A stretch of 37,988 nt of DNA from a virus (Duplodnaviria; Heunggongvirae; Uroviricota; Caudoviricetes). Below are positions 7,866 through 33,782 of the stretch, piece after piece. Location: IMG/VR virus record IMGVR_UViG_2737471821_000001, positions 1-37,988 of that record; one strand, written 5' to 3'. The position numbers were made by a program, and so were the translations under genes. The notes under the pieces were generated by a model. That model saw only the letters and a program-made list of their open reading frames with translations, searched no databases and was not told the DNA's origin. The first letter of the stretch is position 1. Every line of letters starts with the position of its first letter.

Positions 7866-8155
7866 TGGTGGATTTACGTAAAGCGGCGCGGGGGCAGATG
7901 TGCACCGTCAGAATTCCTGGCTACTGCAATCACAATCCCGAAACTTCTGTGCTGGCGCATTACCGACTGGCGGGGACGTGCGGAACAGCGGCAAAACCAC
8001 ACGATATGCAGGCAGCGATTGCCTGTAGATCGTGCCACGATTTAATCGACGGGCGGGTAAAAACCAGTGATTACACCAAAGAAGAATTACGCCTGATGCA
8101 TGCAGAAGGTGTTTTTCGCACACAAGAAATCTGGAGAAAGGAGGGATATTTATGA
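7865..8155 (+). CDS. YbcO-like prophage protein (DUF1364, Cys-rich putative nuclease)
   Basis: 96-aa protein with conserved Cys/His pattern (C..C...H...C..C) similar to lambdoid YbcO as recalled. TAATG overlap with the upstream gene. Confidence 0.55.
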   Translation: MVDLRKAARGQMCTVRIPGYCNHNPETSVLAHYRLAGTCGTAAKPHDMQAAIACRSCHDLIDGRVKTSDYTKEELRLMHAEGVFRTQEIWRKEGYL

Positions 8156-8694
8156 TTTACCCAACGAATACAGGAAAAAGCGGAGAACACCTTCGTCTCA
8201 CTACGCTGGAAAGTGTCTGGATTCAGGGAAAACTACGTATGTGGGGGCGCTGGTCATATATTGGTGGTGGCAGGTCAGGAAATATGTTCAATCAGTTGTT
8301 GGCATCCAAAAAATTGACGAAAACAGCCATCAATGAAGCCCTGCGCAGAATGAAAAAAGCGGGAATAGAGAAACCTGAGCTGGAAGCGTTTTTGCGAGAG
8401 ATGATCAATGGTAAGCAAAAGAGCTGGCTGGCGCATTGTACTGATGCAGAGGCGTTATGTATTGATCGGGTTATAAGTGAGGTGCTGGCAGAACATCCGG
8501 GATTGATTAGCATCCTCCGACAACGGTATGAGGGGCGAGGAATGAGTAAGAGAAGGATGGCCGGGTTACTAAACGAACAGTATCCAGAGTGTTGTTTTAG
8601 CACATGCGAAAAGCGAATTGCTAATTGGTTGGCTGTTGCTGAGTGTGCGCTATACATTCCCATGCGAGAATCATTTGCTCAAAAAATGGCTTGA
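8152..8694 (+). CDS. putative late-gene antiterminator (Q-like)
   Basis: 180-aa ORF at the end of the nin-like region, directly upstream of an intrinsic terminator and the late region. Cys-containing C-terminus; AAGGAGGG RBS. Assignment is positional. Confidence 0.45.
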   Translation: MIYPTNTGKSGEHLRLTTLESVWIQGKLRMWGRWSYIGGGRSGNMFNQLLASKKLTKTAINEALRRMKKAGIEKPELEAFLREMINGKQKSWLAHCTDAEALCIDRVISEVLAEHPGLISILRQRYEGRGMSKRRMAGLLNEQYPECCFSTCEKRIANWLAVAECALYIPMRESFAQKMA

Positions 8695-8778
8695 TTTCTT
8701 ACGCATAAACTGCTTCAATTCCGATACGCTTCGCAAAGCTGTATCGCGTGGCGAATTAATCGCATGAACTTCACCAGA

Positions 8779-8805
8779 ACCCGCCATTGAGCGGGTTTTG
8801 TTGTT
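8779..8805 (+). terminator. intrinsic terminator downstream of the Q-like gene (tR'-like)
   Basis: ACCCGC-CATTGA-GCGGGT hairpin followed by TTTGTTGTT. Confidence 0.55.
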
Positions 8806-9141
8806 ATGTTTAACCATCTACGGGAGAGCTGGCGCTCTACTGACTGGTATTTTGATAACGAAATCTTAAATATTTTATATTGTGATTGTTAGTTGTCTAA
8901 ATTTTATGTATGTTAAGCGGCACAGGATTCCTCCTGCGACGAAGTTTTAGTGGAATCATTATTTACTTTTCTTATGCCAGCCTTTCCTTGAGGTTGGTTT
9001 TTTTATACCTGAAAAAGCAGGTTGGTACGTTAAACTTTATGATGGCTATGCAATTTTAGTTTCTCCTTTCCTGAACCCTCTTGACTACATGGAATTTTCT
9101 TTGTTATGTAAAGCGAGTTAATGTTGTTAAGTTGTTAGAGG

Positions 9142-9861
9142 ATGATTATGGGTGACAGTACTCTGCTCAGGAATTCTTCACTTTTTGTTGCTTACATGGG
9201 GTGTCTTGGGTGGGGAAGTGCTTATTTCTATGGCTGGGGTACTTCCTTTTACTATGGCTTTCCATGGTGGGTTGTCGGGGCCGGTGTTGATGATGTGGCC
9301 AGAAGCCTGTTTTATGCTGTCACAGTTATCGTTATATTCTTGGCTGGATGGGGGATCGGTATTGTCTTCTTTCTGGGGATCAAACAAAAAAATAATATGA
9401 AGGATTTGAGTGCTGTCAGGCTTTTTCTTGCGATATTGTTGCTTTTTGTTCCTCCGGCTCTGGAGTTTTCGGTAATTCATCAGCACTTTGTACCAGATGC
9501 ATTGGTTTTATGCGCTATTGTGGCATTAATAATTACCATGTTCGTCAGAACGGGCAGGAAGTTTATTTACGTTAAATGTATTTCTGAAGTGTCTTTTATT
9601 CGGCATCACAAGATTGAGTGTGTTATGGCCGGATTCATGCTCTATTTCTGGTTGTTTTCGCTTATTGCTGGATGGTACAAACCTCAGTTTAAGAAGGAGT
9701 ATCAGACACTTCACTATGAGAGCGTTTGGTATTACGTTCTTGCTCGCTATGGTGATCGCTTGGTTTTATCAAAATCGTACAGGCACGGTAGTACGAATTT
9801 CGTTATACTTAATAGCGCACATACAGATGAATTTGAAATTAATATAGTCAAAGTGCGCTAA
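9142..9861 (+). CDS. integral membrane protein, cargo (moron) gene
   Basis: 239-aa ORF in an AT-rich island between the Q-like gene and the tRNA genes. Several hydrophobic segments and an aromatic/Gly-rich N-terminus (GWGSAYFYGWGTSFYYGFPWW). GAGG RBS. Confidence 0.55.
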   Translation: MIMGDSTLLRNSSLFVAYMGCLGWGSAYFYGWGTSFYYGFPWWVVGAGVDDVARSLFYAVTVIVIFLAGWGIGIVFFLGIKQKNNMKDLSAVRLFLAILLLFVPPALEFSVIHQHFVPDALVLCAIVALIITMFVRTGRKFIYVKCISEVSFIRHHKIECVMAGFMLYFWLFSLIAGWYKPQFKKEYQTLHYESVWYYVLARYGDRLVLSKSYRHGSTNFVILNSAHTDEFEINIVKVR

Positions 9862-10001
9862 AACATTATGAGTAACCGGGATATAGACTTTTCTGCTTGT
9901 TGTTCAGATATTTTTACTTGATTGTAGCTGACATACAAGATTTAAACGGTTGTGTTGGGTGGATTACAGCGCTAAACTGATTCAGTCAATATTTTTCAAT
10001 C

Positions 10002-10077
10002 GGCCCTTTAGCTCAGTGGTGAGAGCGAGCGACTCATAATCGCCAGGTCGCTGGTTCAAATCCAGCAAGGGCCACCA
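10002..10077 (+). tRNA. tRNA with CAU anticodon (Ile2/lysidine-type or Met; ileZ-like)
   Basis: Cloverleaf folded by hand: acceptor GGCCCTT/AAGGGCC, D-arm GCTC..GAGC, anticodon loop CTCATAA, T-arm GCTGG-TTCAAAT-CCAGC, encoded CCA. Confidence 0.8.
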
Positions 10078-10079
10078 TT

Positions 10080-10156
10080 CCGCCACTAGCTCATCGGGAT
10101 AGAGCATCAACCTTCTAAGTTGATTGTGCGAGGTTCGAGTCCTCGGTGGCGGACCA
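10080..10156 (+). tRNA. tRNA-Arg (UCU anticodon; argN/argO-like)
   Basis: Acceptor CCGCCAC/GTGGCGG, anticodon loop CTTCTAA, T-arm CGAGG-TTCGAGT-CCTCG, encoded CCA. Starts 3 nt after the previous tRNA. Confidence 0.7.
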
Positions 10157-10676
10157 TTCCATGCAAGTTTAGCTGGCAGCGCTATTAGCTCGGCGTAATA
10201 GGGCTATTCGTTAGGCTCTGTTAGTTCACCATATTTCGTCAAAACTTTTCTTTTCAACGCTACAGTTAACATTAATCATTACAAAAACTACTGTTGATGT
10301 AAGTCTTGTGAACTGTTATTTCTGAAGAGCTTACTGTGATTTATTGCGACAACGGAGTTAGCGTACTCCCAATTTGTTCATTTTTATGTTGTTTTTTTTC
10401 GCAATTTCCTGTGAGAAATCAGAAGTCTGGATGAAATAACATAAATTGTATGCGTCTGATACATATTTATACATATGTTTAAATATGAAAACTAATTAGT
10501 TTTTGATGTCATATAAATTATCGGTAATATTACTCTCGACCCGAAAGGCAGCAAGTTTCTGTTCACAGGGGTGTTACCCGCTGTCTTGCGGGTCATTGCT
10601 GGCATCCGTTTAATCATAATGAAGGGCTGTTATCAGTATCAGTGTCATTATTGTGGTTACGGAGGCCTGCTCTATA

Positions 10677-10747
10677 TGCAGGTATCGTATAGTGGTTATT
10701 ACATCAGCCTTAGGTTGGTAATGCCGGTTCGATTCCTGTTCTCCGCA
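10677..10747 (+). pseudogene. degenerate tRNA-like element related to the tRNA-Gly copy at 11461
   Basis: D-arm (ATCGTATAGTGGTTATTAC) and T-loop (GGTTCGATTCC) are conserved, but the anticodon stem cannot pair and the acceptor stem has mismatches. Confidence 0.4.
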
Positions 10748-11107
10748 ACTTCATTGTTTTTTGGACAAGTTTTTACAGCACTGGCGGTTTTCGTGAGGAA
10801 CAGATCTCTTTAATACCTTTATCGTCCCTCATTCTGTAATGGAGATCGGTTACAGACTCAGTGCTGTATTTTTTATGACACAGAAATGGCGCATTGCCCA
10901 CGAAAGGAAGCAGGATTTAGCGTGGAGTAACCAGTGATGCGCCATCTCTGTGTCGGAAAACATGAATTGGGGCGTTCCTCAGTGCGAGGGTGGTTTATAG
11001 AGTCGGTTTAGCGGGAAACCACAGTATCCACGTAAAGTGGAATACTTCGGGAGGCACCCGATGCCCCAAACCCAATAATCATTATAATATTGTGTCCTTT
11101 TATCGTT

Positions 11108-11175
11108 TTAGCCGCCGCCCCGGGCGGTTTTTTTATTCAGTTTTTATGGCTCGCCCTGGCGGGCCTTTTTCATTG
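11108..11175 (+). repeat. copy 1 of a ~65-bp terminator-containing direct repeat
   Basis: GCCGCCCCGGGCGGTTTTTTTATTCAGTTTTTATGGCTCGCCCTGGCGGGCCTTTTTCAT, two hairpin/T-run units; near-identical copy at 11780..11845. Confidence 0.6.
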
Positions 11176-11460
11176 TGTGCCGGAATTCTCAGCTGCCGGT
11201 GGGTGGTGATCAGACGGCAAAAGAGATAACTAAAGATTTTTAATTCGGTTATGATATGGCTTGTATATTTATGATACATATGTATACATATTTTCAAAAA
11301 TAAAAACCAAATATATTTTGGATATCTGAAAAACAGTTGTTAGTATTTTTGCGTCTGGAAGGTGTTTATCTTTTATGTTAGCAGGGGTGCTGTTTGCCAC
11401 CGGAAAGACCAGTGCGGGCTCTCTTGGTAATTCGTGTTATTCCGGGGGCCAGCACAGTAT

Positions 11461-11533
<73 letters not shown>

Positions 11534-11779
11534 AACAGTAACTAAGGCGAGATTGTGTTAGGCACTGACATAATATATGTAGGGTGTTTTTTATGGTTCC
11601 TTGCGCCCCCTGTTCTGTAATGAGTGATATTCGTTGCGGTTCCAGTGCCATTTTTTACACCATCGGAATAATGCATTATTAGCAAATATTTTTACTACTT
11701 TAAATGCATTATTCTGATGTTGTAAACATCGACAAAAACAAAACTGTGATTGGTCATATACTAAGCCAAGCCCGGAAAT

Positions 11780-11845
11780 ACATCCTTAACCGCCGCACCT
11801 GGCGGTTTTTTTTTATTCAGTTTTTTATGGCTCGCTCCGGCGGGC
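11780..11845 (+). repeat. copy 2 of the ~65-bp terminator-containing direct repeat
   Basis: CCGCCGCACCTGGCGGTTTTTTTTTATTCAGTTTTTTATGGCTCGCTCCGGCGGGCCTTTTTCAT, compare 11108..11175. Confidence 0.6.
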
Positions 11846-11937
11846 CTTTTTCATATCCGCGCCACGCCCGGCGCACATCACATCAGATAACACCACACAA
11901 AAGGCATCTGCGGGTGCCTTTGACAGGGTGTTTTTAC

Positions 11938-11960
11938 GGGCCGCTGGCGGCCCTTTTTTA
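11938..11960 (+). terminator. intrinsic terminator
   Basis: GGGCCGC-TGG-CGGCCC hairpin followed by TTTTTTATTT, immediately upstream of the holin-like gene. Confidence 0.55.
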
Positions 11961-11978
11961 TTTGTGGGAGGAAAAAGC

Positions 11979-12350
11979 ATGTCTGAACCCTTATCCGGTT
12001 CCGGTACGGCTGCGGCGCTCGGTGGGGCGACGGTATTTGGACTGTTTACCGGAACGGATTTCGGGATTGTGTTTGGTGCATTCGCCGGGGCGTTGTTTGT
12101 GGCGACGATACCCCAGCAGATTTCTGTCTGGCGTGTGGCGGCGCATTTTCTGGTGTCGTTTATCGTTGGCGTGCTGGGGGCGGATGTCATGGCGTCTTAT
12201 CTGGTCGAAAAACTGGGGCTACACAGCACATCTCTCGACGCGCTTTGCGCGGTACTGGTATCGGTGATTTCGGTGAAGATTCTGTCGTTCATCCACCAGC
12301 AGGATATTGCATCACTGGTATCGCAAACCATCCTGACGACGCAGTTCTGA
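11979..12350 (+). CDS. putative holin / small membrane protein
   Basis: 123-aa protein with Gly-rich hydrophobic helices (GGATVFGLFTGTDFGIVFGAFAGALFVA); GGGAGGA RBS. First gene of the late region, where lysis genes usually sit. Confidence 0.4.
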   Translation: MSEPLSGSGTAAALGGATVFGLFTGTDFGIVFGAFAGALFVATIPQQISVWRVAAHFLVSFIVGVLGADVMASYLVEKLGLHSTSLDALCAVLVSVISVKILSFIHQQDIASLVSQTILTTQF

Positions 12351-12388
12351 CGGAGGAGGACTTTAAATCGCGGATCGTCGGTAGCGTC

Positions 12389-13363
12389 ATGCTGCCGTAT
12401 ATCCGGGGTGATGAGGTATGGGCGGTGTGCCGCGTTTACCTCCAGAGCATTGTTGAAGAAATCACTGAGGGGGATGTTTCGACAAGCCCGTCGGCGGTGT
12501 TCAACAGCACATCAGGAAATGTGGAAGTACAGGAAGGTGACACCAATTTTTTAATCGAAGGCGTTCCTTTCCTTGTTGATCACATCGCCCTGGTGACGAA
12601 AGACCACGGCTCGCTGGGCGTGTGGGATAAAGACCGGATCCCCGCAGGGGTTGAAGTGACAAATACAGGTGAAATTGAGATGGAAAAAGAAGAACTCCAG
12701 GCCCTGTTACAGGGGGTGGTGAACGATGCCATGAGCGGAATTAATCAGAAAATCGATGGAGTAGTCACGCGCATGGACTCACTGGAACAGCGGGACAAAG
12801 CGCGGGCGGATGCCGAAGAGCAGGCGAAAAAAGAGGCCGAAGAAAAGGCCAAAGCCGATGAAGCCGCAGAGGAACAGCGTAAAGCTGATGAAGCTGCGGC
12901 AAAGGAGGCGGAAGAAAAAGCCAAAGCTGACGAGGAGGCAGAAAAAGAACGCAATGACTCTGCCCTGGCCGAAGCACAGGCAAAAGCCGACTCCGCATTC
13001 AGTGCCTGCGGTAAAAACGCGCCAGCACCGTTTTCTGGAGAAAATGCGCTGGACTACCGCAAGCGTGCGCTTATCGCTATGCAGAAACACTCTCCGGCAC
13101 ATAAGGACGTCAATATTCGCGCGATTGCGGATTCTGCAACTCTGGCTGTGCTTGAGGACGCAATTTTCAGTGCCGCCCGTCAGTCCATCGAAAAAGAAAT
13201 GATGAGTACGCAGGGGCAACTGCATAAACGTATCCGCAACGATGAAGCCGGGCGTCGCATTACTGAATATCAGGGCGATCCGAACGTCTGGCTGAGTGCC
13301 TTCAAAATTCCGGGGCGTCGTCTGGCAAAAATTAACACTCAAGGGAGCCTGAACAATGGCTGA
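12389..13363 (+). CDS. putative head scaffold-like protein with coiled-coil repeat, possibly 5'-truncated
   Basis: First ATG with a plausible context; the reading frame stays open upstream to 12245, overlapping the holin-like gene. Central Ala/Glu/Lys-rich coiled-coil (EEQAKKEAEEKAKADEAAEEQRKADEAAAKEAEEKAKADEEAEKER). Lies upstream of the capsid-like gene. Confidence 0.4.
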   Translation: MLPYIRGDEVWAVCRVYLQSIVEEITEGDVSTSPSAVFNSTSGNVEVQEGDTNFLIEGVPFLVDHIALVTKDHGSLGVWDKDRIPAGVEVTNTGEIEMEKEELQALLQGVVNDAMSGINQKIDGVVTRMDSLEQRDKARADAEEQAKKEAEEKAKADEAAEEQRKADEAAAKEAEEKAKADEEAEKERNDSALAEAQAKADSAFSACGKNAPAPFSGENALDYRKRALIAMQKHSPAHKDVNIRAIADSATLAVLEDAIFSAARQSIEKEMMSTQGQLHKRIRNDEAGRRITEYQGDPNVWLSAFKIPGRRLAKINTQGSLNNG

Positions 13364-13973
13364 TATTAACTTTCATCCGTTTAAAAACCGTGGAGCATTT
13401 GGTGGCCTTTTTAACGTCGAATCCCGTGGGCTGATGCAGGGGGATGCGCAGGATGATCCGGCAATTCGTCTGCAACTTTGCTCCGGACGACTGGACAGCA
13501 AAATCAGTGAACCGGTATGGGGTGGTGTCGGTGTTATCGAGTGCATCGCTCCCGCGAAAGACAGCGTTAACGGGGCGGTTATCAAGCAGGCCACGAATGA
13601 CGCCTGTAACGCCTTTACTGTCTTTAATCAGGCATTTCATGGCATTACCACGCCGGATAATCCGGTGCCGTTATATCTCGCGGGTGGCTTTGTTCACTAT
13701 TACCGCGTCGGTTCAGGTGCCCGCATTCCTCTCCCTGTCAGTGCAGAAGTTGTTGCGCTGGCTGATGGAAATAACACCGTTGCTGCCTGTGGTTTTGTGT
13801 GGGATCTGACGAAAAACATGATTGATGTTTATTCGGGATCACCCGGCACTAATCCGAAAGTGGATATTAAGCTGCTGATGGTTTCAGTTGACGGAAACCT
13901 GACGGTGAAAAAAGAGGATGGCGGTAACGTTGTCTGGGAAATCGGCAAACCGTGCGGCCTGTTTTTAATTTAA
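13356..13973 (+). CDS. putative virion head protein (decoration/accessory-like)
   Basis: 205-aa ORF overlapping the upstream stop, between the scaffold-like and capsid-like genes. Confidence 0.4.
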   Translation: MADINFHPFKNRGAFGGLFNVESRGLMQGDAQDDPAIRLQLCSGRLDSKISEPVWGGVGVIECIAPAKDSVNGAVIKQATNDACNAFTVFNQAFHGITTPDNPVPLYLAGGFVHYYRVGSGARIPLPVSAEVVALADGNNTVAACGFVWDLTKNMIDVYSGSPGTNPKVDIKLLMVSVDGNLTVKKEDGGNVVWEIGKPCGLFLI

Positions 13974-13987
13974 GGGGATATTAATTA

Positions 13988-15016
13988 ATGAGCGCATTTA
14001 CTCCTGCGACTACTATTGTGTCGCCGTCAATGGTGCTGCCGGAAATGATCGTGCAACAGAGCATGGCTTCCGGGGCGTTTGAAGTCCTGGCTGGTGGTGC
14101 TCCGGCAGTAAAAATCAGTTCCAGTGATTTGATGGTCTATCAGAAATATCTGCGCATGACCTCGCAGGCGCAGGTCAGCCAGTCTCTGCCGGGCCAGTTA
14201 CCGTCTTCCAGTATCTCTGGTGGCTATGACGGGATGATGACTTATCGAATTTCTTCCCGCTCGCAATACAGCTATCTCGATACTGATGCAGCAGATCGCT
14301 GGGGCTATTCTCTGATTGAAGGCCTGCGCTTGGCTAACCGCCAGGGACACGCTCAAATGTTGCGTAATATGCTGCTGTACGGTGTTGAAGCGAAGAATAA
14401 CGAAGGGATCACCAACTCCCCGAATGCAGTGACGCTGAATCTGGGCAACGACAGCAAAGGTAACGATTCGTACACCACCTGGGATTCCGGCGAGATGGCT
14501 AAATTTATGCTTGGCCTGATTGCTGACCAGAAAACCCGCATGTTGCTGCTGGGGCAGCCATTAACGACTGTTATTCTGAGTCCACAGCGATTCATGAAGG
14601 CGCTGGAGTGGACAGGAATTGTTGAGCTGACCAGTTATCAGCGTCCTGGTGGTGGTACCGGAACGGTGGGAACGATGGTTAAAGATGTCGCCGATAAGGC
14701 GACAGGCGACGACATCATTTTCTGCCAGGACGACACGCTGATCGGTAAAGGCGCTGGTGGTAATGACCTGATCATCGTTACGAACCCGACGATTGAGGTT
14801 CCGGAAGCGCGTCATACCATTAACACCAATATTTTCTCCACGCTGGTTCCTAACCAGCAGGCCGTCAACGTGATGTTCTGTGATATGGCAGCGCCGACGG
14901 AAATACCATCCCCTATGCCGGATGGTGGCCTGACCACGTTGTATACCATGCGCGCGACGCCGGGCTGGAACTTCCGCCCTGAGGGGATCACCCTGTTGTC
15001 TGCCAAATACGCATAA
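13988..15016 (+). CDS. putative major capsid protein
   Basis: 342-aa ORF with AAGGGGA RBS, followed by a strong intrinsic terminator. Assignment by size and position after the scaffold-like gene; no family match could be made. Confidence 0.4.
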   Translation: MSAFTPATTIVSPSMVLPEMIVQQSMASGAFEVLAGGAPAVKISSSDLMVYQKYLRMTSQAQVSQSLPGQLPSSSISGGYDGMMTYRISSRSQYSYLDTDAADRWGYSLIEGLRLANRQGHAQMLRNMLLYGVEAKNNEGITNSPNAVTLNLGNDSKGNDSYTTWDSGEMAKFMLGLIADQKTRMLLLGQPLTTVILSPQRFMKALEWTGIVELTSYQRPGGGTGTVGTMVKDVADKATGDDIIFCQDDTLIGKGAGGNDLIIVTNPTIEVPEARHTINTNIFSTLVPNQQAVNVMFCDMAAPTEIPSPMPDGGLTTLYTMRATPGWNFRPEGITLLSAKYA

Positions 15017-15033
15017 ACGTTCAACCTGATAAC

Positions 15034-15060
15034 GCGGGGAGCTAAATGCTCCCCTTTTTT
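15034..15060 (+). terminator. intrinsic terminator after the capsid-like gene
   Basis: GCGGGGAGC-TAAAT-GCTCCCC hairpin followed by TTTTTT. Confidence 0.7.
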
Positions 15061-15073
15061 GTGGGAAAAATTT

Positions 15074-15544
15074 ATGAAGCTCTACATCGCTAACTGCTCA
15101 CGTCAGCCGCACACGTTCAACTACAAACTCCCCGAAAAAACGCAGTCGTTCGGTGTGACAATTCCGTCCGGACGTCAGCATATGATCGAAAATCAGTCCG
15201 ATATTATCGACCACATCATCCGACAGCATGAGCCTTACGGATTCCAGCGTTGTGACAAGGTGGACAAGAATTTTTCTGGTATCTGCTATTCCATCGATAA
15301 ACCTGTGAGCGTTGGTCGCATTGAGGATTGCGCGGAGCAGAAAACGGAAAATCTGGAATCCCTGTCAGAAGAAATTCTCGCAGCCAGCGCCGTATCGCTG
15401 AATAACGCAGTGGATCAGGCAGTGATTCAGAGTGGCGAAAAACCTCAACCAGGTGGTATTGAAATGGAAATCACCGGGGAAGCGGTTAACACCGAACAGG
15501 AAAATCCGCCCAGCACAAAGCGAAATATTAAGGTTAAAAAATAA
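15074..15544 (+). CDS. putative head-tail connector / virion protein
   Basis: ATG at 15074 (the track ORF begins at a TTG at 15059); operon-like packing with neighbours. Confidence 0.4.
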   Translation: MKLYIANCSRQPHTFNYKLPEKTQSFGVTIPSGRQHMIENQSDIIDHIIRQHEPYGFQRCDKVDKNFSGICYSIDKPVSVGRIEDCAEQKTENLESLSEEILAASAVSLNNAVDQAVIQSGEKPQPGGIEMEITGEAVNTEQENPPSTKRNIKVKK

Positions 15545-15984
15545 TGACCCTGCGTCCGTCACTGGAGGGGTTTATTCGCTTTGTTCGTGACGACATGAAA
15601 GTACCGGTTCACGCTATTGCTGACGATGATCCGACACTGGAATGTTGCTTTCAGTCTGCGATGGAGCTAATCCCTCACGATCAGGGGCTGGAGCGTTTAC
15701 CCATCATCTATGTGCGAACGGTTTATAACGCTGCCGCCTCATTTCTCCTGAATTTCGCTCCCGGCTCGTGGTTTGCCGACCTGAGAAAAAAACTCAACCT
15801 TGGGAAACTGGCTACCGGGCTTGTCAGCGCGGCAGCAGACCAGGGGACATCGGGTTCGATCACCATCAGCGACGCGCTGAGTAATCTGTCTTTGCTGGAT
15901 TTGCAGATGTTACAGGATCCGTATGGACGACAGGTTGTTGCGGTGCTGATGCAGATGGGCACGGTATGGGGTTACACGCCATGA
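15544..15984 (+). CDS. putative head-tail joining protein
   Basis: 146-aa ORF whose start overlaps the upstream stop. Confidence 0.4.
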   Translation: MTLRPSLEGFIRFVRDDMKVPVHAIADDDPTLECCFQSAMELIPHDQGLERLPIIYVRTVYNAAASFLLNFAPGSWFADLRKKLNLGKLATGLVSAAADQGTSGSITISDALSNLSLLDLQMLQDPYGRQVVAVLMQMGTVWGYTP

Positions 15985-16421
15985 AACTTTGTTTTGGGGT
16001 TATCGACCAGCCGTATGACTACGGCGACGAACCGGGAAAAACCACGTTTGACGTGGCCTGTGACCTCGAGGAGCGATACGAAATTTTTACGCACTTCTGG
16101 GAAATGCATAAGGACGAGATTATCCAGGAGGCAGGTACTGAACTGGCGTACCAGTTGGTCAATCACTTCAAGTATAAGGCTCCGCTACCTGGCGAGCATT
16201 TTCTGGAAGGGACCGGGAAGATTTTCCATATATTTCTTGAAACCGAAGAAATGGCCGGAATGACGATCAACGGAAATCAGGTCCCAACCCAGGCTGCGTT
16301 ACAGGGTGTTAACTCAAGGCTTAAGGACAAATATATCGGGGAGCGGCGCCCGTCATTCATAGATGGCGGCCTGTTTAAGGGCAGCTTTATAGCGTGGATA
16401 GATAACAATGCCGAGTCTTGA
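15981..16421 (+). CDS. putative tail completion / neck protein
   Basis: ATGA overlap with the upstream gene at 15981 (the track ORF begins at 15966). Confidence 0.4.
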   Translation: MKLCFGVIDQPYDYGDEPGKTTFDVACDLEERYEIFTHFWEMHKDEIIQEAGTELAYQLVNHFKYKAPLPGEHFLEGTGKIFHIFLETEEMAGMTINGNQVPTQAALQGVNSRLKDKYIGERRPSFIDGGLFKGSFIAWIDNNAES

Positions 16422-17352
16422 AGAATTAGCCGGACAGCACAGTTCGCAGCTCTCGTCCGTTCTTAAATCCGCAGTTGAAACCATCTCGTCAGACCAGGAA
16501 ATCACGTTCAGGCTCTATGTCCGGCAGGTTCTGCCGCTGGATGGTTTTGTCTATTGGGTTAATGCGGAAATCATCAGTTGCGATGAACTGTGTCGTCTGA
16601 ATATTGAGTCACCAACTCGTCTGAAAATCAAAGGCAGCCTGCATCGTCAGGTTATTGCGATTCAGGACGAGTCTGTCTCGAAGGATGTGAACAACATTAT
16701 TTTCACGCCTGTTCAGCAGGTTGATGATTTTAATGTGGAAAATCCCGATGCGATCTATCTCGGTGAGTACGGCGGCGTCCAGTTCGCTTTTTCTCGAATG
16801 GAGAGCCGCTATCAGCAGTCGGGTATTTTTCATTATCGCGGCATGGCGATTTTGCCAACCATGCGTTCCCAGATTATCGACTGCGAGGAGGATATCAGCG
16901 ACGAGCAGATCATATCCAACAGCATCCCGATCTGGCTGCAAATGAAAGATGCCGCGACCGTGTATCCGTCTTACCTGGTACCGCAGAACCTTCGCCCTCC
17001 GTATATCGCGGTGGATGTTCGCAACAGTATTCCTTTGCAGATGGCTCCCGTTGTTTTCGGTGGTGAGCGATTCCAGCTCGTCCAGGATTCGGTTCGCCTG
17101 ACGCTTTACGGATTCAGCAACAAAATGGCGCTGGATCTTGTCGACTCGGTGGTGAACAGGGCGCTGGAGGAGGAAAAGTTTGGTGTAACCAATATTCCGG
17201 TGGTTCAGGACGCAAAGTCGGGACAGGTTGAAATCAACGCTCTGGCGAAGAAAAAGATTGTCGATTTTGACGTGAATTACTACCAGAGCACCGCCCGGGA
17301 AATATCCCGGCAGTTGATTGAAAAAGTCATTTGTAAATATGAGGTTAAATAA
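16408..17352 (+). CDS. putative virion structural protein
   Basis: 314-aa ORF overlapping both neighbours, directly upstream of the sheath-like gene. Confidence 0.4.
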   Translation: MPSLEELAGQHSSQLSSVLKSAVETISSDQEITFRLYVRQVLPLDGFVYWVNAEIISCDELCRLNIESPTRLKIKGSLHRQVIAIQDESVSKDVNNIIFTPVQQVDDFNVENPDAIYLGEYGGVQFAFSRMESRYQQSGIFHYRGMAILPTMRSQIIDCEEDISDEQIISNSIPIWLQMKDAATVYPSYLVPQNLRPPYIAVDVRNSIPLQMAPVVFGGERFQLVQDSVRLTLYGFSNKMALDLVDSVVNRALEEEKFGVTNIPVVQDAKSGQVEINALAKKKIVDFDVNYYQSTAREISRQLIEKVICKYEVK

Positions 17353-26533: not shown

Positions 26534-27760
26534 ATGTCAGAAATACCAATTACTATGACCAGTGCGGGGGCGCAGCCTACGCCACCCAATGATTTGCTCG
26601 CGAATCTTATCACCAGAGTTGCCGAAAAAGTACCTGGATATACAGCCAACCTTCCGGCGGGGCTTATTACAGACCTTGCCAGCACGGCTGTCGGGGCGCT
26701 GGCATTAATAGACCAGGCGCGGGTGGACCTTATTAACTCCGTAAGCCCATACGGCGCAAATATTCCGTTACTGATGCAACTCGGAAACATTTATGGAGCA
26801 CAGAAGGGATTAAGTACAAATACGGCGGTATACGTGGTGTTTGAGGCGTTGCCGGGGTTTGGTATCCCTAAAGGATTTGTTGTCGGTGACGGCAACTACC
26901 AGTATGCAGTTTCCCGCGATACGGTGGTGCCGGAAAGCGGGCAGACTGAGCCAGTCTACTGTGTGGCCACAACGTCAGGCTCATGGGCTGTACCGGAAGG
27001 AACCGTAACGCAGGTCATTACATCGGTACCCAAAGATCAGCCTGTAAAATGCACGAACCTTACCGCAGGGATGCCAGGTCAGGAGGCGCAAACGTGGGCA
27101 TCTTACCGCGCCGAAGTCATGGAGTCCGGCATGTTTGGTGTGCAGGGAACACCGGATTGCTTTAAAGCGATGCTCAAATCAGTAAGCGGTGTGCGAGAAA
27201 ACCTGATTTCTTTCCGGCAGTCGTCGCTGGGGAAATGGGTTGCGGTTGTTGGTGGCGGTGATCCGTATGATGTGGCTTATGCTATTTACAAATCTGTACC
27301 GGATATTTCGAAACTGACCAACGATGTTAGCAATCCATCTGGTGCGGCAGTGGAAAAACGCACGGTTTCAATAACCGTTTCGCCAGATGTTTATCAGGTA
27401 CCGTTCGTTATCCCGTCATCACAAAACGTCATGGTGCTAATCACCTGGAACACTGTATCTGATGATTATGTTGATCCGGCGGGTATTGCTATGGCTGTGC
27501 AGCAAAACGTTGCTGATTACATCAATTCTATTGAAGTCGGACACCCGATAAATCTGCTGCGAATCCAGGATATTTTTACCAGTTCCGTCAGATTGTTGGT
27601 TGATGCGACGTTGATCTCAACAATCAGTGTGAGCATTGGCATTAATGGCCATATTGTTCCTCCGGCAAAAGACACAAGCCTGGTTTATGGCGATACCTAT
27701 TCCTATTTTTCGACGGTGGTATCACAGGTTCAAGTTAACAAGTATGCAATATCTGACTGA
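26534..27760 (+). CDS. putative baseplate J-like protein
   Basis: 408-aa ORF with GGAG RBS, followed by an overlapping I-like gene and the tail fibre gene. Confidence 0.5.
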   Translation: MSEIPITMTSAGAQPTPPNDLLANLITRVAEKVPGYTANLPAGLITDLASTAVGALALIDQARVDLINSVSPYGANIPLLMQLGNIYGAQKGLSTNTAVYVVFEALPGFGIPKGFVVGDGNYQYAVSRDTVVPESGQTEPVYCVATTSGSWAVPEGTVTQVITSVPKDQPVKCTNLTAGMPGQEAQTWASYRAEVMESGMFGVQGTPDCFKAMLKSVSGVRENLISFRQSSLGKWVAVVGGGDPYDVAYAIYKSVPDISKLTNDVSNPSGAAVEKRTVSITVSPDVYQVPFVIPSSQNVMVLITWNTVSDDYVDPAGIAMAVQQNVADYINSIEVGHPINLLRIQDIFTSSVRLLVDATLISTISVSIGINGHIVPPAKDTSLVYGDTYSYFSTVVSQVQVNKYAISD

Positions 27761-28370
27761 AAAAATTCTCCCTGCTTATCCGTTTGTGCAGTACAGAGAT
27801 GATCCGAATGTTGTTGCGTTCTTTGATGCATACAATGAAATTGCTCAGGAATACCTCGATTCACTCAACAATCTGGCATTGCCATGCTGGACATCGGAAT
27901 CAATAACCGGGCAATTGCTGGACTGGATTGCTCTCGGGATTTATGGCGTTGAAAGGCCTTTACTACAGGTTTCCGAGGAGGCTATTGCACGCGGCGCATA
28001 CGATACCATTGAATACAATACAATCCCTTATGCGGCAATGCGGAATTATGTTCCGGGGCAGGCATCGTATGTTCCGGATGATTATTTCAAGCGAATATTA
28101 ACTTGGAATTTTTATAAGGCTGACGGTTCGCATTTCTGCATTGACTGGTTAAAGCGCCGTGTGGCACGGTTCATTCATGGGAAAAACGGAATAGACCCGC
28201 CGTTGCAGCACACTTTTGATGTGAGCGTGACTGTATCGGACAGTGTTTTTTCTATTCAGATACCAGAATATGGTGATGGTATAGGCTATTTTCTGAAAGA
28301 TGCCATTGACCAGAAATATGTAAAACTCCCTTTTATTTATTCCTATGCAACAACGGTGATTCAAAAATGA
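27744..28370 (+). CDS. putative tail/baseplate protein I-like (YmfQ/DUF2313-like)
   Basis: ATG at 27744 (the track ORF begins at 27636). N-terminus MQYLTEKILPAYPFVQYRDDPNVVAFFDAYNE resembles the gpI/DUF2313 family as recalled. Confidence 0.5.
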   Translation: MQYLTEKILPAYPFVQYRDDPNVVAFFDAYNEIAQEYLDSLNNLALPCWTSESITGQLLDWIALGIYGVERPLLQVSEEAIARGAYDTIEYNTIPYAAMRNYVPGQASYVPDDYFKRILTWNFYKADGSHFCIDWLKRRVARFIHGKNGIDPPLQHTFDVSVTVSDSVFSIQIPEYGDGIGYFLKDAIDQKYVKLPFIYSYATTVIQK

Positions 28371-29920
28371 TTCTTGGATTCGGAAATAACGTTGTTTCAG
28401 CACTGGCTGGTGATATTACGACGATTCAGACTGATATTCCGGTGATGCCGGGCACGGGAGCTAAATTTGCAAAATTGCTTTCTGCCGATTTTGAAAATAA
28501 ATCGAACGGGCAACGCGTCTATGCAAAAATTACGCTTACCGATAATAAAGAGTCTGCATTTGAGATTTGTCACCTGGTATCGGTAAGCGGTGATGTGCTG
28601 AAAGTCATTCGTGGGCAGGAAGGAACAACCGCGAAAGGTTGGTCCCTTAATGACGTTGTGGCTAACTTTGCCACGCGTGGATCGGAAAACTATTTCGTAC
28701 AGATAGCGCAGCTTCAGAGCGGTCATTATATTGCGGGTGTTACTGGTGGCACTGCAAACGCACTGACGCTGGAACTTCCCTCGACGTTTTTTGTTAATGG
28801 AGGTACAGATTGGACGCTACGAACTCCGATTATAGTTTTCCCCGTTCAGAACAATACCAACGCGGCGACACTTCAACTAACACTAGGCGGAAAGGTTCTT
28901 GGTACGTTCCCACTTTATAAGGGGAACAAGTCCGAGCTGGTAGCGAATGATATCATTAAGGGTATTCCTTTGATTTGCCTTCTTGATAGCGAGAAAAGCT
29001 ATTTCAGTGTGATAAACCCCGGCAATATCTATTCAGATTTTGATCTGCGATATGTAAAAAAATCTGGTGATTTGATGACCGGGGAGCTGAAAATACGTGG
29101 TGTTAATGCATTGAGGATTTTTAACGAGGCTTTTGGCCTTATTTTTCGCCGTTCTGAAGAGTGCCTGCACCTTATCCCTACTAGTGAAGGTCAGGGCGAG
29201 AATGGAGATATTGGTCCCCTGCGTCCGCTCACCATTAATTTGCGGACAGGAGAGATATCCATGTCGCATAAAGTGTCTGTTGGCGGTGGTTCTCAGGTCA
29301 ATGGTGCACTGGGTATCGGCGTTAAGAACGCGCTGGGCGGAAACTCAATTGCTTTCGGGGATAACGATACAGGTATAAAACAAAACGGCGACGGCATTCT
29401 GGATGTTTATGCGAATGGACAGCATGTATTTCGTTTCCAGAATGGTGTGGCGATAGCGTTAAAAAATATTCAGGCCGGAAATGCTAAAAAATTCACGTTA
29501 TCCAGCGCCAACAACTCCACGAAAAACGCAACGTTTAATTTATGGGGTAATTCATCCCGACCTGTAGTTGCAGAGCTTGGTGATGATTCCGGCTGGCATT
29601 TTTACAGCCAGAGAAATACCGATGGCAGTATCACATTCGCTGTAAACGGACAGATGACCCCATCAAACTATGGAAATTTCGATGCCCGTTATCAGCAGCG
29701 AAATGGCGGCGTGCAGGATGTGCGCTATGGTTCCGAAATGTATTACAAACCTGGCAGCAATGTAATCTCCTGGACATATCACGCTCCTGCGGGACACGGA
29801 TTGTCAGGGATATCGATATCGGATACTGGTAAAAATTCAGCGGATAACGTCAACGGCGTGTATTACCGACCGCTTCAGAAACTGATTAACGGCACCTGGT
29901 ATAACGTGGCGAGTGTTTAA
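28367..29920 (+). CDS. putative tail fibre protein
   Basis: 517-aa ORF between the baseplate genes and the Tfa gene; Gly/Asn/Thr-rich C-terminal half. ATGA overlap with the upstream gene. Confidence 0.55.
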   Translation: MILGFGNNVVSALAGDITTIQTDIPVMPGTGAKFAKLLSADFENKSNGQRVYAKITLTDNKESAFEICHLVSVSGDVLKVIRGQEGTTAKGWSLNDVVANFATRGSENYFVQIAQLQSGHYIAGVTGGTANALTLELPSTFFVNGGTDWTLRTPIIVFPVQNNTNAATLQLTLGGKVLGTFPLYKGNKSELVANDIIKGIPLICLLDSEKSYFSVINPGNIYSDFDLRYVKKSGDLMTGELKIRGVNALRIFNEAFGLIFRRSEECLHLIPTSEGQGENGDIGPLRPLTINLRTGEISMSHKVSVGGGSQVNGALGIGVKNALGGNSIAFGDNDTGIKQNGDGILDVYANGQHVFRFQNGVAIALKNIQAGNAKKFTLSSANNSTKNATFNLWGNSSRPVVAELGDDSGWHFYSQRNTDGSITFAVNGQMTPSNYGNFDARYQQRNGGVQDVRYGSEMYYKPGSNVISWTYHAPAGHGLSGISISDTGKNSADNVNGVYYRPLQKLINGTWYNVASV

Positions 29921-29922
29921 CA

Positions 29923-30468
29923 ATGTTGCATTTAAAAAATATTACTGCAGGCAATCCGAAAACCGCAGAACAATATCAGATGACAAAACAACATGGTATC
30001 ACCTGGCTTTTTTCGGAAGATGACAAAAACTGGTATGAAGAGCTGAAAAATTTTGCCAGTGACACCATAAAAATGGTTTACACCGGAGACGGGCGCGTGG
30101 TTTGGGTCGGTAAGGATGTGACAGGCATTGAACCCCGTAACGCCAGTGTTATTGAAGTTCCTGATATTACCGCTAACCGCCGTATTACCGTGCCTGGTTA
30201 CTGGTTTTACCGCGACGATAAATTTGTCTTCGACTACAAACTTAAAGCGGAAGATGAGCGCGATGCCCTGTTACAACGGGTCAGCATCATGACCAGCGAA
30301 TGGGAAAAAGACCTGCTGCTGGGATTAATCAGTGACGACGACAGGGAGAAGCTGAAAGCGTACCGCATTTACGCGAAATCGCTGCAGGCGATGGATTTCA
30401 GCACCATCACTGATAAAACCTCATATAACGCCATTGAATGGCCCGTCTCTCTGGAAGCCTCTTCCTGA
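29923..30468 (+). CDS. tail fibre assembly protein (Tfa family)
   Basis: 181-aa protein downstream of the fibre gene, with a Tfa-like C-terminal region (DERDALLQRVSIMTSEWEKDLLLGLISDDDREKLKAYRIYAKSLQAMDFS). Confidence 0.65.
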   Translation: MLHLKNITAGNPKTAEQYQMTKQHGITWLFSEDDKNWYEELKNFASDTIKMVYTGDGRVVWVGKDVTGIEPRNASVIEVPDITANRRITVPGYWFYRDDKFVFDYKLKAEDERDALLQRVSIMTSEWEKDLLLGLISDDDREKLKAYRIYAKSLQAMDFSTITDKTSYNAIEWPVSLEASS

Positions 30469-30491
30469 TTTAATTTATCGCGAGAAAAACT

Positions 30492-31225
30492 ATGTCTGTA
30501 GTGATATCAGGTGCACTGATTGATGGCGCAGGCATCCCCATGTACGGATGCCACATAACTCTGAAATCCCGGGTAAACACCTCAGAGGTGTGATGCGCAC
30601 AGTTGCCGATGTGGTGACAGGAAACTGTGGTGCAGGCGCAGCAGAGCGCGAAACAGCACAGGGACGAGGCGCAATGGATAGTTGATGATCTGAAGGGAAG
30701 CAATGCTTCCACGACAAAAAAGGTCTGGCGCAACTCTGTAGTGATACAGACAACGACAGCGAAGAACTGGCAGCCACGCCAAAGGCTGTCAAAACCGTCA
30801 CGGACGAGACGAAAACAAAAGCGCCACTGGACAGCCCTGCATTCACCGTCACGTCAGAACTTATCGCCGTGGGAAAGGATGCCAGAAAGCGGGAAATCGA
30901 GGTGTGGAGCACAGAACAGGAAGCGCAGCCGTTCACGTTCGAATGGAACGGTCGCACCTGGAATGCTGGCCCCGACTCAATGGCTCGTCTTTATCCGGCA
31001 GTAATGGCATCAAAGTCTGACACAGCGCGAAAAACCATGGTATGGGGCGATGCGGAAAACCAGCAGGTGAAGCTGTCAATGCCGGAACCGGAAGAACTGG
31101 CAGCAGCAATGGCGCAGGCTGTTGTTGAACGCAATGACGAGATTTATCGCCGTCAGCGAGAGAAGAAAGAAGCGTTAGACACTCTGGAGGATTTAGATGC
31201 GATACGAGCATTTAATGTTGAGTAA
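30492..31225 (+). pseudogene. degenerate lambdoid side-tail-fibre (Stf)-like gene remnant, frameshifted
   Basis: ORF opens with MSVVISGALIDGAGIPMYGCHITLKSRVNTSEV then a stop at 30591, resembling the lambda Stf N-terminus. Another frame carries ATPKAVKTVTDETKTKAPLDSPAFT, resembling an internal Stf motif. Reading shifts between three frames. Confidence 0.5.
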
Positions 31226-31439: not shown

Positions 31440-31461
31440 AAAAGTGATGGGAGAAACTTTC

Positions 31462-32133
31462 ATGAATATGCCTCATTGTGTTCTGCATACAGGAATTGAT
31501 TCGGATTTTGTACTTAGTAAACTGGGCTTTACAGAAAATGATATTCGCGATGCGTTAATGTCTGCTTTATACGAGCGACGCAAATCCAGTAAGCTCCACC
31601 CTAAAGTGGATGCTGGATTCCGCTTTTGGAGTGAGATGGTTGCCGCGCTTCGCCGTATTCTGATTGGTAAGGGTAACGGCTGGTCTTCTGAAGTAGTCAA
31701 TCGCATGGAAATGGTCGTTAATTCAAGCAAAGGGGTTAATCTGATTATTACCTCAGGTGACGGACATACCGGGCGTCCTGATGGATTGCCTAAAACCAAA
31801 AATGCAAAGGGAGAGGCAACTCGCTCGATTGTTCACAACAATCCGGGTACATTCGATATGTTCCAAGCAGATACCTTACATTCAGGCAAAGCTGAGATCA
31901 CGCCGATAGATAGCACCCGAACTTATATCGTTCTGTATTATTATGATGCGGCAAATAAAGAAATTCGCTGTGAGGTGTCGTATCCGGTAGGGATGGTGAA
32001 TCAGGACGGATTTGCCAGAGTAAGCGCGTGGAGTGAGCGAATTATTTTAGCTCCTCTGCAATTTGAAGGTGCGGATATTTTCCCTGAACAGGATTTTGAT
32101 GATGACATATCAATTTCAGTTGAAAGCAAATGA
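31462..32133 (+). CDS. hypothetical protein, upstream partner of the HTH-ImmA gene (candidate effector/toxin)
   Basis: ATG at 31462 with GGGAGA RBS (the track ORF begins at a GTG at 31444). 223 aa, no family recognised. Stop overlaps the next start (ATGA). Confidence 0.5.
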   Translation: MNMPHCVLHTGIDSDFVLSKLGFTENDIRDALMSALYERRKSSKLHPKVDAGFRFWSEMVAALRRILIGKGNGWSSEVVNRMEMVVNSSKGVNLIITSGDGHTGRPDGLPKTKNAKGEATRSIVHNNPGTFDMFQADTLHSGKAEITPIDSTRTYIVLYYYDAANKEIRCEVSYPVGMVNQDGFARVSAWSERIILAPLQFEGADIFPEQDFDDDISISVESK

Positions 32134-33236
32134 GTAACACTGTTGATGATGTCAAACGTCTTTTTAATCCGTCTCGACTAAAGCTAGCGCGGATCAGACG
32201 CAAACTGACCTTGGCAGAACTGGCGAGGCGAACCGGGTTATCTAGTCGTATCGTAATTGAATACGAAAAAGATTATTGTCTTTATGCACCCACGGCAGAG
32301 ACGGTACGCGCATACGCTAGTGCTTTAAATTATCCAGAGGCTTTTTTCTTTGGCGATGATGTTGAAACAATTGATCCATTGACTGTTTCATTTCGTTCAT
32401 TACGCACAACAAAAGCTGCTGACCAGCATGCGGCAATTGGTGCAGGTGCTTTAGGGGTTATGCTTAGCGATTATTTTAATGCTCGCTTTACTCTTCCTTC
32501 GCCTCAATTGCCGAATCTCCGTGGAAGTGAGCCTGAGGTCGCTGCCCAAGCGATACGCGAGGCTTGGGGGATTGGTAAGAAGAGTATCACCAATGTTGTT
32601 CATCTACTTGAGAAATTTGGAGTTAAGGTGTTCTGGCTTTCAGAGGAAACAGCGAGTATTGATGCTTTTTCGTTCTGGAAAGATGATGTCCCTTATATCT
32701 TTCTTAACACACGCAAGTCAGGTGAACGCAGCCGTTTTGATGCCGCACATGAATTGGCTCACCTAGTACTTCATCGTCAAGGGGAAGTCAAAGGGCAGGA
32801 TGCTGAGCGTGAAGCGGATGCTTTTGCTTCTGCATTTCTAATGCCTCAGGAAAACGTGATGGCCGTTAAGATGGTGGTCCCGACGTTTGATAAAATTGTG
32901 CAATTGAAATCACTCTGGAAAGTTTCGGCTATGGCCCTGATTGTCAGAATGCGCAATCTAAATATGCTGACGGAATGGCAGTATAATAGTTTGATACGTG
33001 ATGCGACGGCAAAGGGGTATCGAACCGGCGAGCCGGGGGGAATTGAGCGCGAAAGATCACTCGTTATAGAAAAAATGATGACTGCTCTGGCTGGAGACGG
33101 CATTTATCTGGCTCAGTTGAGTGATGAGCTTAACGTACCTCTCGATGAATTGAGTAGTTTGCTTTATGGAGTTGCGGCAATTAGTGGCGGAAATAGCAAA
33201 AGAACACCATCAAGGGCTTCGCTCCGACTAGTATGA
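32130..33236 (+). CDS. fusion of HTH-XRE DNA-binding domain and ImmA/IrrE-type zinc metallopeptidase (COG2856-like)
   Basis: N-terminal HTH (LKLARIRRKLTLAELARRTGLSSRIVIEYE) and central HEXXH motif (AAHELAHLVLH). Confidence 0.7.
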   Translation: MSNTVDDVKRLFNPSRLKLARIRRKLTLAELARRTGLSSRIVIEYEKDYCLYAPTAETVRAYASALNYPEAFFFGDDVETIDPLTVSFRSLRTTKAADQHAAIGAGALGVMLSDYFNARFTLPSPQLPNLRGSEPEVAAQAIREAWGIGKKSITNVVHLLEKFGVKVFWLSEETASIDAFSFWKDDVPYIFLNTRKSGERSRFDAAHELAHLVLHRQGEVKGQDAEREADAFASAFLMPQENVMAVKMVVPTFDKIVQLKSLWKVSAMALIVRMRNLNMLTEWQYNSLIRDATAKGYRTGEPGGIERERSLVIEKMMTALAGDGIYLAQLSDELNVPLDELSSLLYGVAAISGGNSKRTPSRASLRLV

Positions 33237-33457: not shown

Positions 33458-33755
33458 CAAAAGAGTGGATTATCGTAGCTTATTGTTGTTGCTGATAACA
33501 CTTAACGCATTGAAAAATAAATAAAACTCTTACACCTCAGATGGTTGTGATTTTTGCCCTTACTTGTTCAGGTTGTATTGTTCTTTCTTACTAATTTCTT
33601 GATTTTGCGACATTTAAAAGCGACTCAATTCGTTATATGGCATCAGAAGAGTATGCGTCATGCCGGAACGCCCAGCATAAGAAATCTGATATAAAAAACT
33701 GTGGCGTGTATGGTACGGATTAGAGGGGAAAATGTCAGCACATTTGCGAAATGAA

Positions 33756-33782
33756 TCAAAAAGCCCGCAGCAATGTGCGGGC
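33756..33782 (-). terminator. intrinsic terminator downstream of uspF
   Basis: GCCCGCAGCAATGTGCGGGC hairpin with a T-run on the minus strand. Confidence 0.6.

Follow-up and report, generated by a model that had tools for sequence, protein, structure and literature searches.

Contig JUCP01000079.1 of Escherichia coli assembly GCA_000797595.1, recorded in IMG/VR as IMGVR_UViG_2737471821_000001, carries a lambdoid prophage that is almost certainly the product of a single recent, microhomology-mediated deletion. The deletion, which is 8,035 bp in length, stripped a Rac-SA53-type prophage residing at the Rac site of its distal lysis genes and its proximal head genes. The stretch analyzed here, referred to as the window, is this contig in its entirety (37,988 bp). 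Positions 1–33589 are prophage and the remainder is host DNA because a 26-bp sequence at 33564–33589 exactly matches the core of the attachment site annotated in phage Rac-SA53 (KU052037). The host genes uspF, ompN, and nifJ (ydbK) lie 3′ of this attR core in the order annotated in E. coli strain RM13745, and both features place the integration at the Rac attachment site. The left end of the contig falls within the prophage between the kilR and racR-like regions. Throughout the early, late-regulatory, head, and tail regions, the order of modules and the nucleotide sequence resemble those of Rac-type prophages; YdaT, DnaC-like, hok, Rem, and DUF1133 genes were called in the window. Judged by its sequence, the element is a lambdoid prophage of the Rac-SA53 type sitting at the Rac site; both the phage type and the locus are known.

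The deletion was mapped by comparison with the intact prophage of RM13745 (NZ_CP044312.1, 2.064–2.112 Mb; locus L001), which is also found in strains RM13752 and RM11911 and is essentially the same phage as that in the window. The RM13745 prophage lies between ttcA/intR/xisR and uspF/ompN/nifJ, i.e., at the Rac site, and is colinear with the window and ~99.9% identical to it. The two share identical accessory genes and the same fragmentary second tail fibre. RM13745 differs in that it keeps 8,035 bp encoding lysis, packaging, and portal functions as well as 24 more codons in the E/A/K repeat of a gene of the DUF2213 family. In blastn alignments, window positions 8355–12322 correspond to L001 1–3969 (99.92% identity) and window positions 12319–31000 correspond to L001 12001–30754. 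Exactly 8,035 bp, L001 3970–12004, are missing from the window. The two arms overlap in the tetranucleotide TATC, which is present at both breakpoints of RM13745; microhomology of at least 4 bp has a probability of 0.016 under random joining. Comparison with strain GmM062 (L002) yielded the same two breakpoints, and comparison with Rac-SA53 yielded the same right breakpoint. No insertion sequence (IS) and no longer repeat was present at the junction. An IS-mediated deletion and homologous recombination between repeats were therefore ruled out, the latter by the sharing of only 4 bp. The sequence at the junction looks like the outcome of illegitimate, microhomology-mediated recombination.

The deletion begins at codon 115 in the gene for holin 1, ends at codon 69 in the DUF2213 gene, and thus truncates two genes that are full-length in intact relatives. 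An in-frame fusion of these genes was ruled out, as their frames differ at the junction. The first-pass annotation of this DNA had proposed that an internal deletion joined a 5′-truncated head gene to the lysis region at the point where a scaffold-like open reading frame (ORF) runs into a holin-like gene. The 8,035-bp gap and the TATC junction bear out this proposal, and the scaffold-like ORF indeed meets the holin gene there. The breakpoint itself lies at 12319–12322 rather than at 12245, where the scaffold-like frame opens; the sequence in between is an alternative frame of the holin gene. Alignment with intact SfV-like or lambdoid genomes had been recommended for locating the breakpoint. 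Such alignment did locate it, but the relatives proved to be Rac-SA53-like prophages of the Rac site, not SfV-like phages.

The genes lost through the deletion, as read in RM13745 and GmM062, are listed in Table 1; their order is common to RM13745, GmM062, and Rac-SA53. When the TerS, TerL, portal, endolysin, second holin, and head-morphogenesis proteins of an intact relative were compared with the whole window by tblastn, none was found (best E = 0.4). The small lipoprotein likewise gave nothing significant in the whole window (E = 0.025). ORFs between 11.9 and 18.7 kb were scanned against Pfam and PHROGs, and no terminase, portal, endolysin, or spanin family was detected. These results agree with the first-pass annotation, which reported no terminase, portal, endolysin, or Rz-like gene and suggested profile searches of this region as a check; no terminase or portal emerged among the ORFs at 12.4–17.3 kb. 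It had also found no ORF large enough for a terminase large subunit or portal between the holin and capsid genes, and this interval indeed holds just the DUF2213 frame and an ORF of 205 amino acids. ORFs at 15.0–17.4 kb were ruled out as candidates for portal or terminase, as intact relatives encode those proteins separately upstream. The portal protein of the intact relatives RM13745 and GmM062 is named “anti-CBASS protein Acb1 family protein” by PGAP. The name is probably an artefact; alternatively, Acb1 may describe a local domain only.

The left breakpoint leaves holin 1 as a chimera comprising 115 native residues and eight foreign residues (QTILTTQF) followed by a TGA codon at 12348–12350. 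Intact holin 1 of RM13745 consists of 130 amino acids and ends in a charged C-terminal tail, GLFSRLRDGGGGNVR. This tail is swapped for QTILTTQF because the holin frame runs into the head gene out of frame. The call of a holin-like gene in the first-pass annotation is supported by a family match but needs refinement, since this gene is damaged as well: its last 15 codons have been exchanged for eight foreign ones. The match of the chimera to Phage_holin_8 lies above the gathering threshold and spans positions 1–110 of the 121-position profile. Three hydrophobic stretches (approximately residues 9–46, 48–76, and 83–107) all lie upstream of the junction and are kept. The Shine-Dalgarno sequence of the gene has a calculated energy of −10.2 kcal/mol.

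On the right side of the junction, the deletion beheads a gene whose intact product of 440 amino acids matches Pfam DUF2213 and, weakly, two PHROG families named “head maturation protease.” An exhaustive HMMER search of representative sequences identified 772 relatives, in which the first ~195 residues are conserved from residue 3 on; a word-indexed homologue search had returned mainly fragments. Alignment of 50 homologues revealed 22 invariant positions including H73, S125, and H157, the spacing of which we take to resemble the His/Ser/His triad of assemblins. Searches of solved structures with the sequence of the intact protein returned coiled-coil noise only (for example, V-ATPase subunit G and erlin) and no detectable similarity to solved proteases, and the tie to proteases therefore needed a comparison of folds. 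In the predicted model, the N-terminal domain has the fold of the T4 gp21 and herpesvirus assemblin prohead proteases. The C-terminal half comprises a coiled coil rich in E, A, and K followed by a conserved end. Viewed through this model, the DUF2213 gene encodes a fusion of a prohead-protease domain with a coiled-coil, scaffold-like region. It resembles P2 gpO and lambda gpC/Nu3 in its protease domain, coiled coil, conserved C-terminal part, and position directly upstream of capsid genes. We take this layout to be of the protease-scaffold fusion type represented by P2 gpO. H73, S125, and H157 are candidate catalytic residues, and the C-terminal part is a putative scaffold. The scaffold-like label given to the ORF in the first-pass annotation holds for the coiled-coil part; the gene as a whole appears to be a prohead-protease fusion deprived of residues 1–69.

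According to the model, these 69 residues form one helix and four core strands, about the first third of the protease domain. Nine of the 22 invariant positions of the N-terminal domain are gone. The match of the remnant to phrog_6216 begins at position 182 of the 545-position profile, and a Pfam scan of the remnant gave no DUF2213 match because one third of the domain is gone; the family was seen only on the intact relative. Starting at TTG 12245, the frame remains open for 372 codons, up to 13363; its overlap with the holin gene amounts to 106 nt and had been noted (about 100 nt) from the sequence alone. In RM13745, the counterpart of the stretch 12245–12319 is the holin gene rather than the DUF2213 gene. 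No Shine-Dalgarno sequence was recognized ahead of TTG 12245 (+0.4 kcal/mol). The first in-frame ATG, at 12389, had been said to lack a good ribosome-binding site, and its Shine-Dalgarno sequence is weak and interrupted (−4.2 kcal/mol, compared with −8.3 kcal/mol for the capsid gene); that of the in-frame GTG at 12425 is stronger (−6.9 kcal/mol). These two canonical restarts correspond to M93 and V105, respectively, and drop H73 too. The remnant thus modeled is predicted not to work as a protease.

Several observations pertain to this gene and its names. Relative to RM13745, the coiled-coil region at ~12880–12950 is shorter by 72 nt (24 codons), a difference that keeps the frame, and the Rac-SA53 protein has yet another length (430 amino acids), a polymorphism in repeat number. 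The remnant read from 12389 to 13363 (324 amino acids; WP_225857790.1) is named “NUDIX hydrolase” at NCBI, and related entries are named “TolA protein.” Many DUF2213 relatives have an extra N-terminal segment of ~125–135 amino acids that may be the source of the NUDIX name. We found no functional assignment in the literature on DUF2213. DUF2213 was called an “essential domain” in Burkholderia on the basis of transposon sequencing (PMC8770471), which is odd for the prohead protease of a prophage.

The junction recurs in other assemblies. The exact chimeric holin of 123 amino acids is encoded on 6–7 contigs of independent assemblies under four NCBI protein accessions, KHH89733.1, EFO3887621.1, EHV2461847.1, and EQA1134457.1; among the assemblies are GCA_000797595.1, GCA_020381785.1 (L004), and a Logan assembly of run SRR2239619. 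Two of these contigs are 99.985% and 100% identical to the window at the DNA level. The recurrence bears on the possibility that a short-read assembler collapsed or mis-joined parts of an intact prophage. The window does come from a short-read draft contig, and a megablast search of 5,426 complete E. coli genomes did not find the junction in any of them; each half was matched separately, and the halves were never joined. We nevertheless consider an assembly artefact extremely unlikely and dismiss it because the arms share only 4 bp, an overlap too short to mislead an assembler into a mis-join. Moreover, separate NCBI assemblies and the independent Logan assembly encode the identical junction protein on contigs that differ in length and reach 104 kb, and nowhere else does the window hold a copy of the deleted DNA. 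A search for the exact 41-nt junction in one genome per species also found none; this result is uninformative since the allele is rare within E. coli.

The intact block from TerS to DUF2213 is found in 83 of the 5,426 complete genomes and represents the usual state; the deletion allele is rare and probably clonal. An indel is formally symmetrical, and for that reason alone one might propose that the 8-kb block was inserted in the relatives and that the window retains the ancestral arrangement. This proposal deserves practically no credence, and we dismiss it because the short form truncates the genes on both sides. Family profiles and the 50 homologues indicate that both are complete in the long form. 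The long form, moreover, occurs in Rac-SA53 itself as well as in the 83 finished genomes, and its block encodes terminase, portal, and endolysin, without which no phage of the Rac-SA53 type could function.

The age of the deletion is indicated by its surroundings. Apart from the deletion and the 72-nt difference in repeat length, the prophage differs from that of RM13745 at ~8 positions in 33.4 kb, whereas the host DNA beyond attR differs at 37 positions in 4.3 kb. Divergence therefore steps up ~40-fold at attR, from ~0.02% to 0.86% (positions 21–33400 versus 33590–37974). Because of this jump, the two prophages must share a far more recent ancestor than do the chromosomes at this locus. The pattern suggests recent lysogenisation by an active phage, independently in two host lineages, with the deletion occurring afterwards; recombination of the host flank is an alternative. 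All 20 of the remaining late-gene products are full-length and 99.3–100% identical to those of RM13745, and the deletion is recent because these genes still match at 99–100% at the protein level. The intactness of the remaining late genes is a matter of youth, with no demonstrable selection.

This conclusion bears on whether the short form, instead of being a dead remnant, is a selected, functional derivative, which might be a tailocin-like producer of tails or might depend on a helper and borrow terminase, portal, and lysis genes from a co-resident phage. In favor of such a derivative, the head and tail genes that are left are intact save for the truncated DUF2213 remnant, the holin-like gene and Q-like regulator are kept, and the deletion allele occurs in several isolates. 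The intactness is, however, explained by age: with only ~8 differing sites in 33 kb from the intact relative, there has been no time for decay and there is no signal of purifying selection. Tailocin loci have no capsid genes and encode their own endolysin, whereas here the capsid gene and five other head-module genes are kept and the endolysin is gone; the locus thus departs from an R-type tailocin, a tail without capsid accompanied by its own holin and endolysin. Each breakpoint falls at an arbitrary point within a gene, and the two frames do not match. The packaging site is usually located at TerS, and TerS and with it this usual location have been deleted. One of the assemblies with the deletion has its sheath gene called in two pieces, although this could be a sequencing error. 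We regard a selected functional derivative as very unlikely. Little probability also attaches to a related view, in which the host keeps the short form as a “locked-in” derivative for its immunity, Rosmer pair, and RecET-type functions without the risk of lysis. Upon induction, such a derivative might yield no particles at all, or just free tails or empty shells, or a related helper might package it. The near-zero divergence and the probably clonal distribution speak neither for nor against it.

Ordinary decay by a single deletion remains the interpretation we favor, and four points weigh against it or limit it. The inability of this element to form particles or lyse its host is predicted here from gene content. 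The window is one contig, and a co-resident phage elsewhere in the genome might stand in for the missing terminase, portal, and lysis genes. Assemblies with the junction hardly differ from one another, and all of them may come from one clone; the junction is real, but selective upkeep is not implied. Finally, the stretch between endolysin and TerS varies among relatives (Rac-SA53 has LT-IIa toxin genes there), and because of this variability, what exactly the direct ancestor lost is only inferred from RM13745, which is 99.9% identical.

The gene content suggests a model for the present state of the deleted prophage. A Q-dependent late transcript would pass the terminator-like hairpins and run through the chimeric holin and decapitated protease/scaffold genes into the capsid and tail genes. 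After induction, tails and perhaps aberrant, portal-less shells could form. Lack of TerS, TerL, portal, head-morphogenesis protein, and protease would preclude DNA packaging, and lack of the endolysin and its partners would leave the cell wall undegraded. The element would be locked in the chromosome because neither packaging of its DNA nor lysis of the cell should be possible. It would keep its immunity, replication, Rosmer defence, and other accessory genes, and the holin or early functions of the kil type may still do harm to the cell. For the host, deletions of this sort should be neutral or favourable, since they abolish lysis after induction.

Table 1. Features of the window and genes lost from it; lost genes are those of the intact prophages of RM13745 (L001) and GmM062.
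Feature	Position	Strand	Basis
Rac-site (ttcA/uspF) lambdoid prophage with contractile tail, Rac-SA53 type, right-hand part (33.6 kb)	1–33589	+	Colinear with RM13745
Q-like late antiterminator (DUF1133)	8152–8694	+	Pfam DUF1133; faint Phage_antitermQ match
Chimeric holin 1, 123 amino acids	11979–12350	+	Phage_holin_8, 73.7 bits (cut-off 26.4); phrog_198 “holin,” 7.5e-39
Accidental upstream frame extension	12245–12319	+	Alternative frame of holin gene, never head-gene sequence
Deletion junction, 4-bp microhomology TATC	12319–12322		TATC at both breakpoints of intact RM13745
5′-truncated DUF2213 gene, no native start codon	12320–13363	+	Codons 70–440 of intact gene
Head-module protein, 205 amino acids, role unassigned, intact	13356–13973	+	phrog_6268, 6.8e-99; 100% identical to RM13745
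Probable major capsid protein, 342 amino acids, intact	13988–15016	+	phrog_6671, 1e-183; phrog_264 “major head protein,” 6.6e-9
Four intact ORFs, capsid-sheath interval	15074–17352	+	phrog_6737, 6356, 6560, 6359 (function unassigned); 99.3–100% identical to RM13745
Contractile-tail module: sheath, tube-region genes, tape measure, baseplate, one fibre and assembly protein	17352–30468	+	phrog_205 “tail sheath,” 1.3e-54; Baseplate_J
Fragments of second tail-fibre pair (Rac-SA53 tail3, tail4)	30492–31225	+	tblastn
attR core, 26 bp	33564–33589		Exact match to att site annotated in Rac-SA53
Lost: holin 1, last 15 codons			Alignment
Lost: second holin			Phage_holin_3_7
Lost: M15 endolysin			Peptidase_M15_4; phrog_465; WP_000014549.1 in RM13745
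Lost: small lipoprotein, 60 amino acids, with lipobox (LVGC), putative spanin			Translation
Lost: ynaK pseudogene			Annotation
Lost: TAGT-like glycosyltransferase			Pfam TAGT
Lost: ORF of 69 amino acids			Annotation
Lost: TerS			Terminase_2; phrog_51
Lost: TerL			Terminase_6N; phrog_2; WP_061354756.1 in RM13745
Lost: portal	L001 9600–11036		Phage_portal_3; phrog_146 (7e-75); WP_001559065.1 in RM13745
Lost: head-morphogenesis protein			phrog_324
Lost: DUF2213 gene, first 69 codons			Alignment

Downstream of the DUF2213 remnant, the late genes continue undamaged as far as the second tail fibre. The capsid gene is 100% identical to that of RM13745 and also has a weak match to Pfam Major_capside. 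Their position suggests that the four ORFs between capsid and sheath are head-completion or neck genes. Products of the tail module are full-length and 99.9–100% identical to those of RM13745, and the intact fibre consists of 517 amino acids. The first-pass annotation had described the tail module as complete, which is correct for the sheath, tube, tape measure, baseplate, and one fibre with its chaperone but not for the second fibre pair, which is fragmentary. What remains of tail3 are residues 1–47 and 209–286 of 1,061, and of tail4 residues 61–187 of 187, in fragments that shift frame. This lesion is older than the deletion and is shared with the otherwise intact RM13745, where PGAP annotates a remnant of 33 amino acids. 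In GCA_020381785.1, the region at 14790–16128 that corresponds to window positions 17352–18689 contains a sheath gene called in two pieces (327 and 114 amino acids) with two gap openings relative to the window; these may be sequencing errors or the first secondary decay.

Accessory genes interrupt or follow the tail module. Within the baseplate genes lies a moron (25333–26493, + strand) that encodes a protein of 386 amino acids with matches to HSDR_N and HSDR_N_2. The HSDR_N domain is the N-terminal, nuclease-like domain found in R subunits of type I restriction enzymes; the protein had no match in PADLOC. In Rac-SA53, this slot is occupied on the opposite strand by the gene for an antirepressor and two further genes; it looks like a hot spot for morons. 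Just before attR, the genes at 31444–32133 and 32130–33236 (+ strand) were identified by PADLOC as RmrT (1.3e-59) and RmrA (1e-142), the Rosmer anti-phage defence pair; the RmrA gene encodes HTH_3 and Peptidase_M78/IrrE domains. The pair occupies the slot of the long tail-fibre genes of Rac-SA53.

Upstream of the deletion, the immunity region, replication genes, Q-like antiterminator, and late promoter region are all kept. The counterpart of the Q-like gene in Rac-SA53 is annotated as “antitermination protein Q,” and the gene in the window lies upstream of the late operon, followed on its 3′ side by a promoter-like site (8852–8881) and terminator-like hairpins. Between the late promoter region and the tRNAs, positions 9148–9861 (+ strand) encode a predicted membrane protein of 237 amino acids (Pfam TfpB, phrog_1521), the position of which is occupied in Rac-SA53 by pertussis-like toxin genes. 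Three tRNAs, usual in lambdoid late regions, lie between the Q-like gene and the holin gene at 10002–10077 (CAT anticodon; Met according to ARAGORN, Ile according to PGAP), 10080–10156 (Arg-TCT), and 11461–11533 (Gly-TCC). A direct repeat of ~69 bp (11108–11173 and 11786–11854; 88% identical) flanks tRNA-Gly upstream of the holin gene. Each copy holds two terminator-like hairpins, and a third hairpin is located at 11938–11953.

Full-sized Rac-like prophages of E. coli have been described (Jobling 2016, as cited in PMC5917428, which also places the Rac locus of E. coli K-12 between ttcA and uspF). Rac-SA53 is the closest named phage to the element in the window. DNA identity between the two ranges from 83% to 98% by segment and reaches 95–98% over the head and proximal tail genes. 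The order in Rac-SA53, from immunity through Q, lysis, TerS/TerL, portal, DUF2213, and capsid to the contractile tail, is that of the window except for the missing interval from the 3′ end of the holin 1 gene to codon 69 of DUF2213. The window differs further in lacking the LT-II and pertussis-like toxin genes and in its fragmentary second fibre; it has instead the TfpB-like gene, the three tRNAs, the HSDR_N-domain moron, and the Rosmer pair. The cryptic Rac prophage of K-12 occupies the same site (ttcA/uspF), has a racR/ydaS/ydaT-type early region, and has likewise lost morphogenetic genes by deletion. Nearly all structural genes are gone from K-12 Rac, whereas the prophage in the window is at a much earlier stage, with one deletion and the rest intact.

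The case is one of ordinary prophage decay by a single deletion, seen in a very young defective prophage, and it leaves the current understanding of phage biology unchanged. Its value lies mainly in annotation, as the gene content marks the element as defective and the breakpoint is placed to the base. Two misleading gene calls are explained: a “holin” with a foreign tail and a “NUDIX hydrolase” of 324 amino acids that is a decapitated prohead protease/scaffold gene. Proteins of the DUF2213 family, commonly annotated as unknown or under the names TolA and NUDIX, are predicted from the structural model to have a prohead-protease fold. For the Rac locus, the window captures a clean and datable first step of prophage decay in which lysis and packaging were lost together and the rest stayed pristine.

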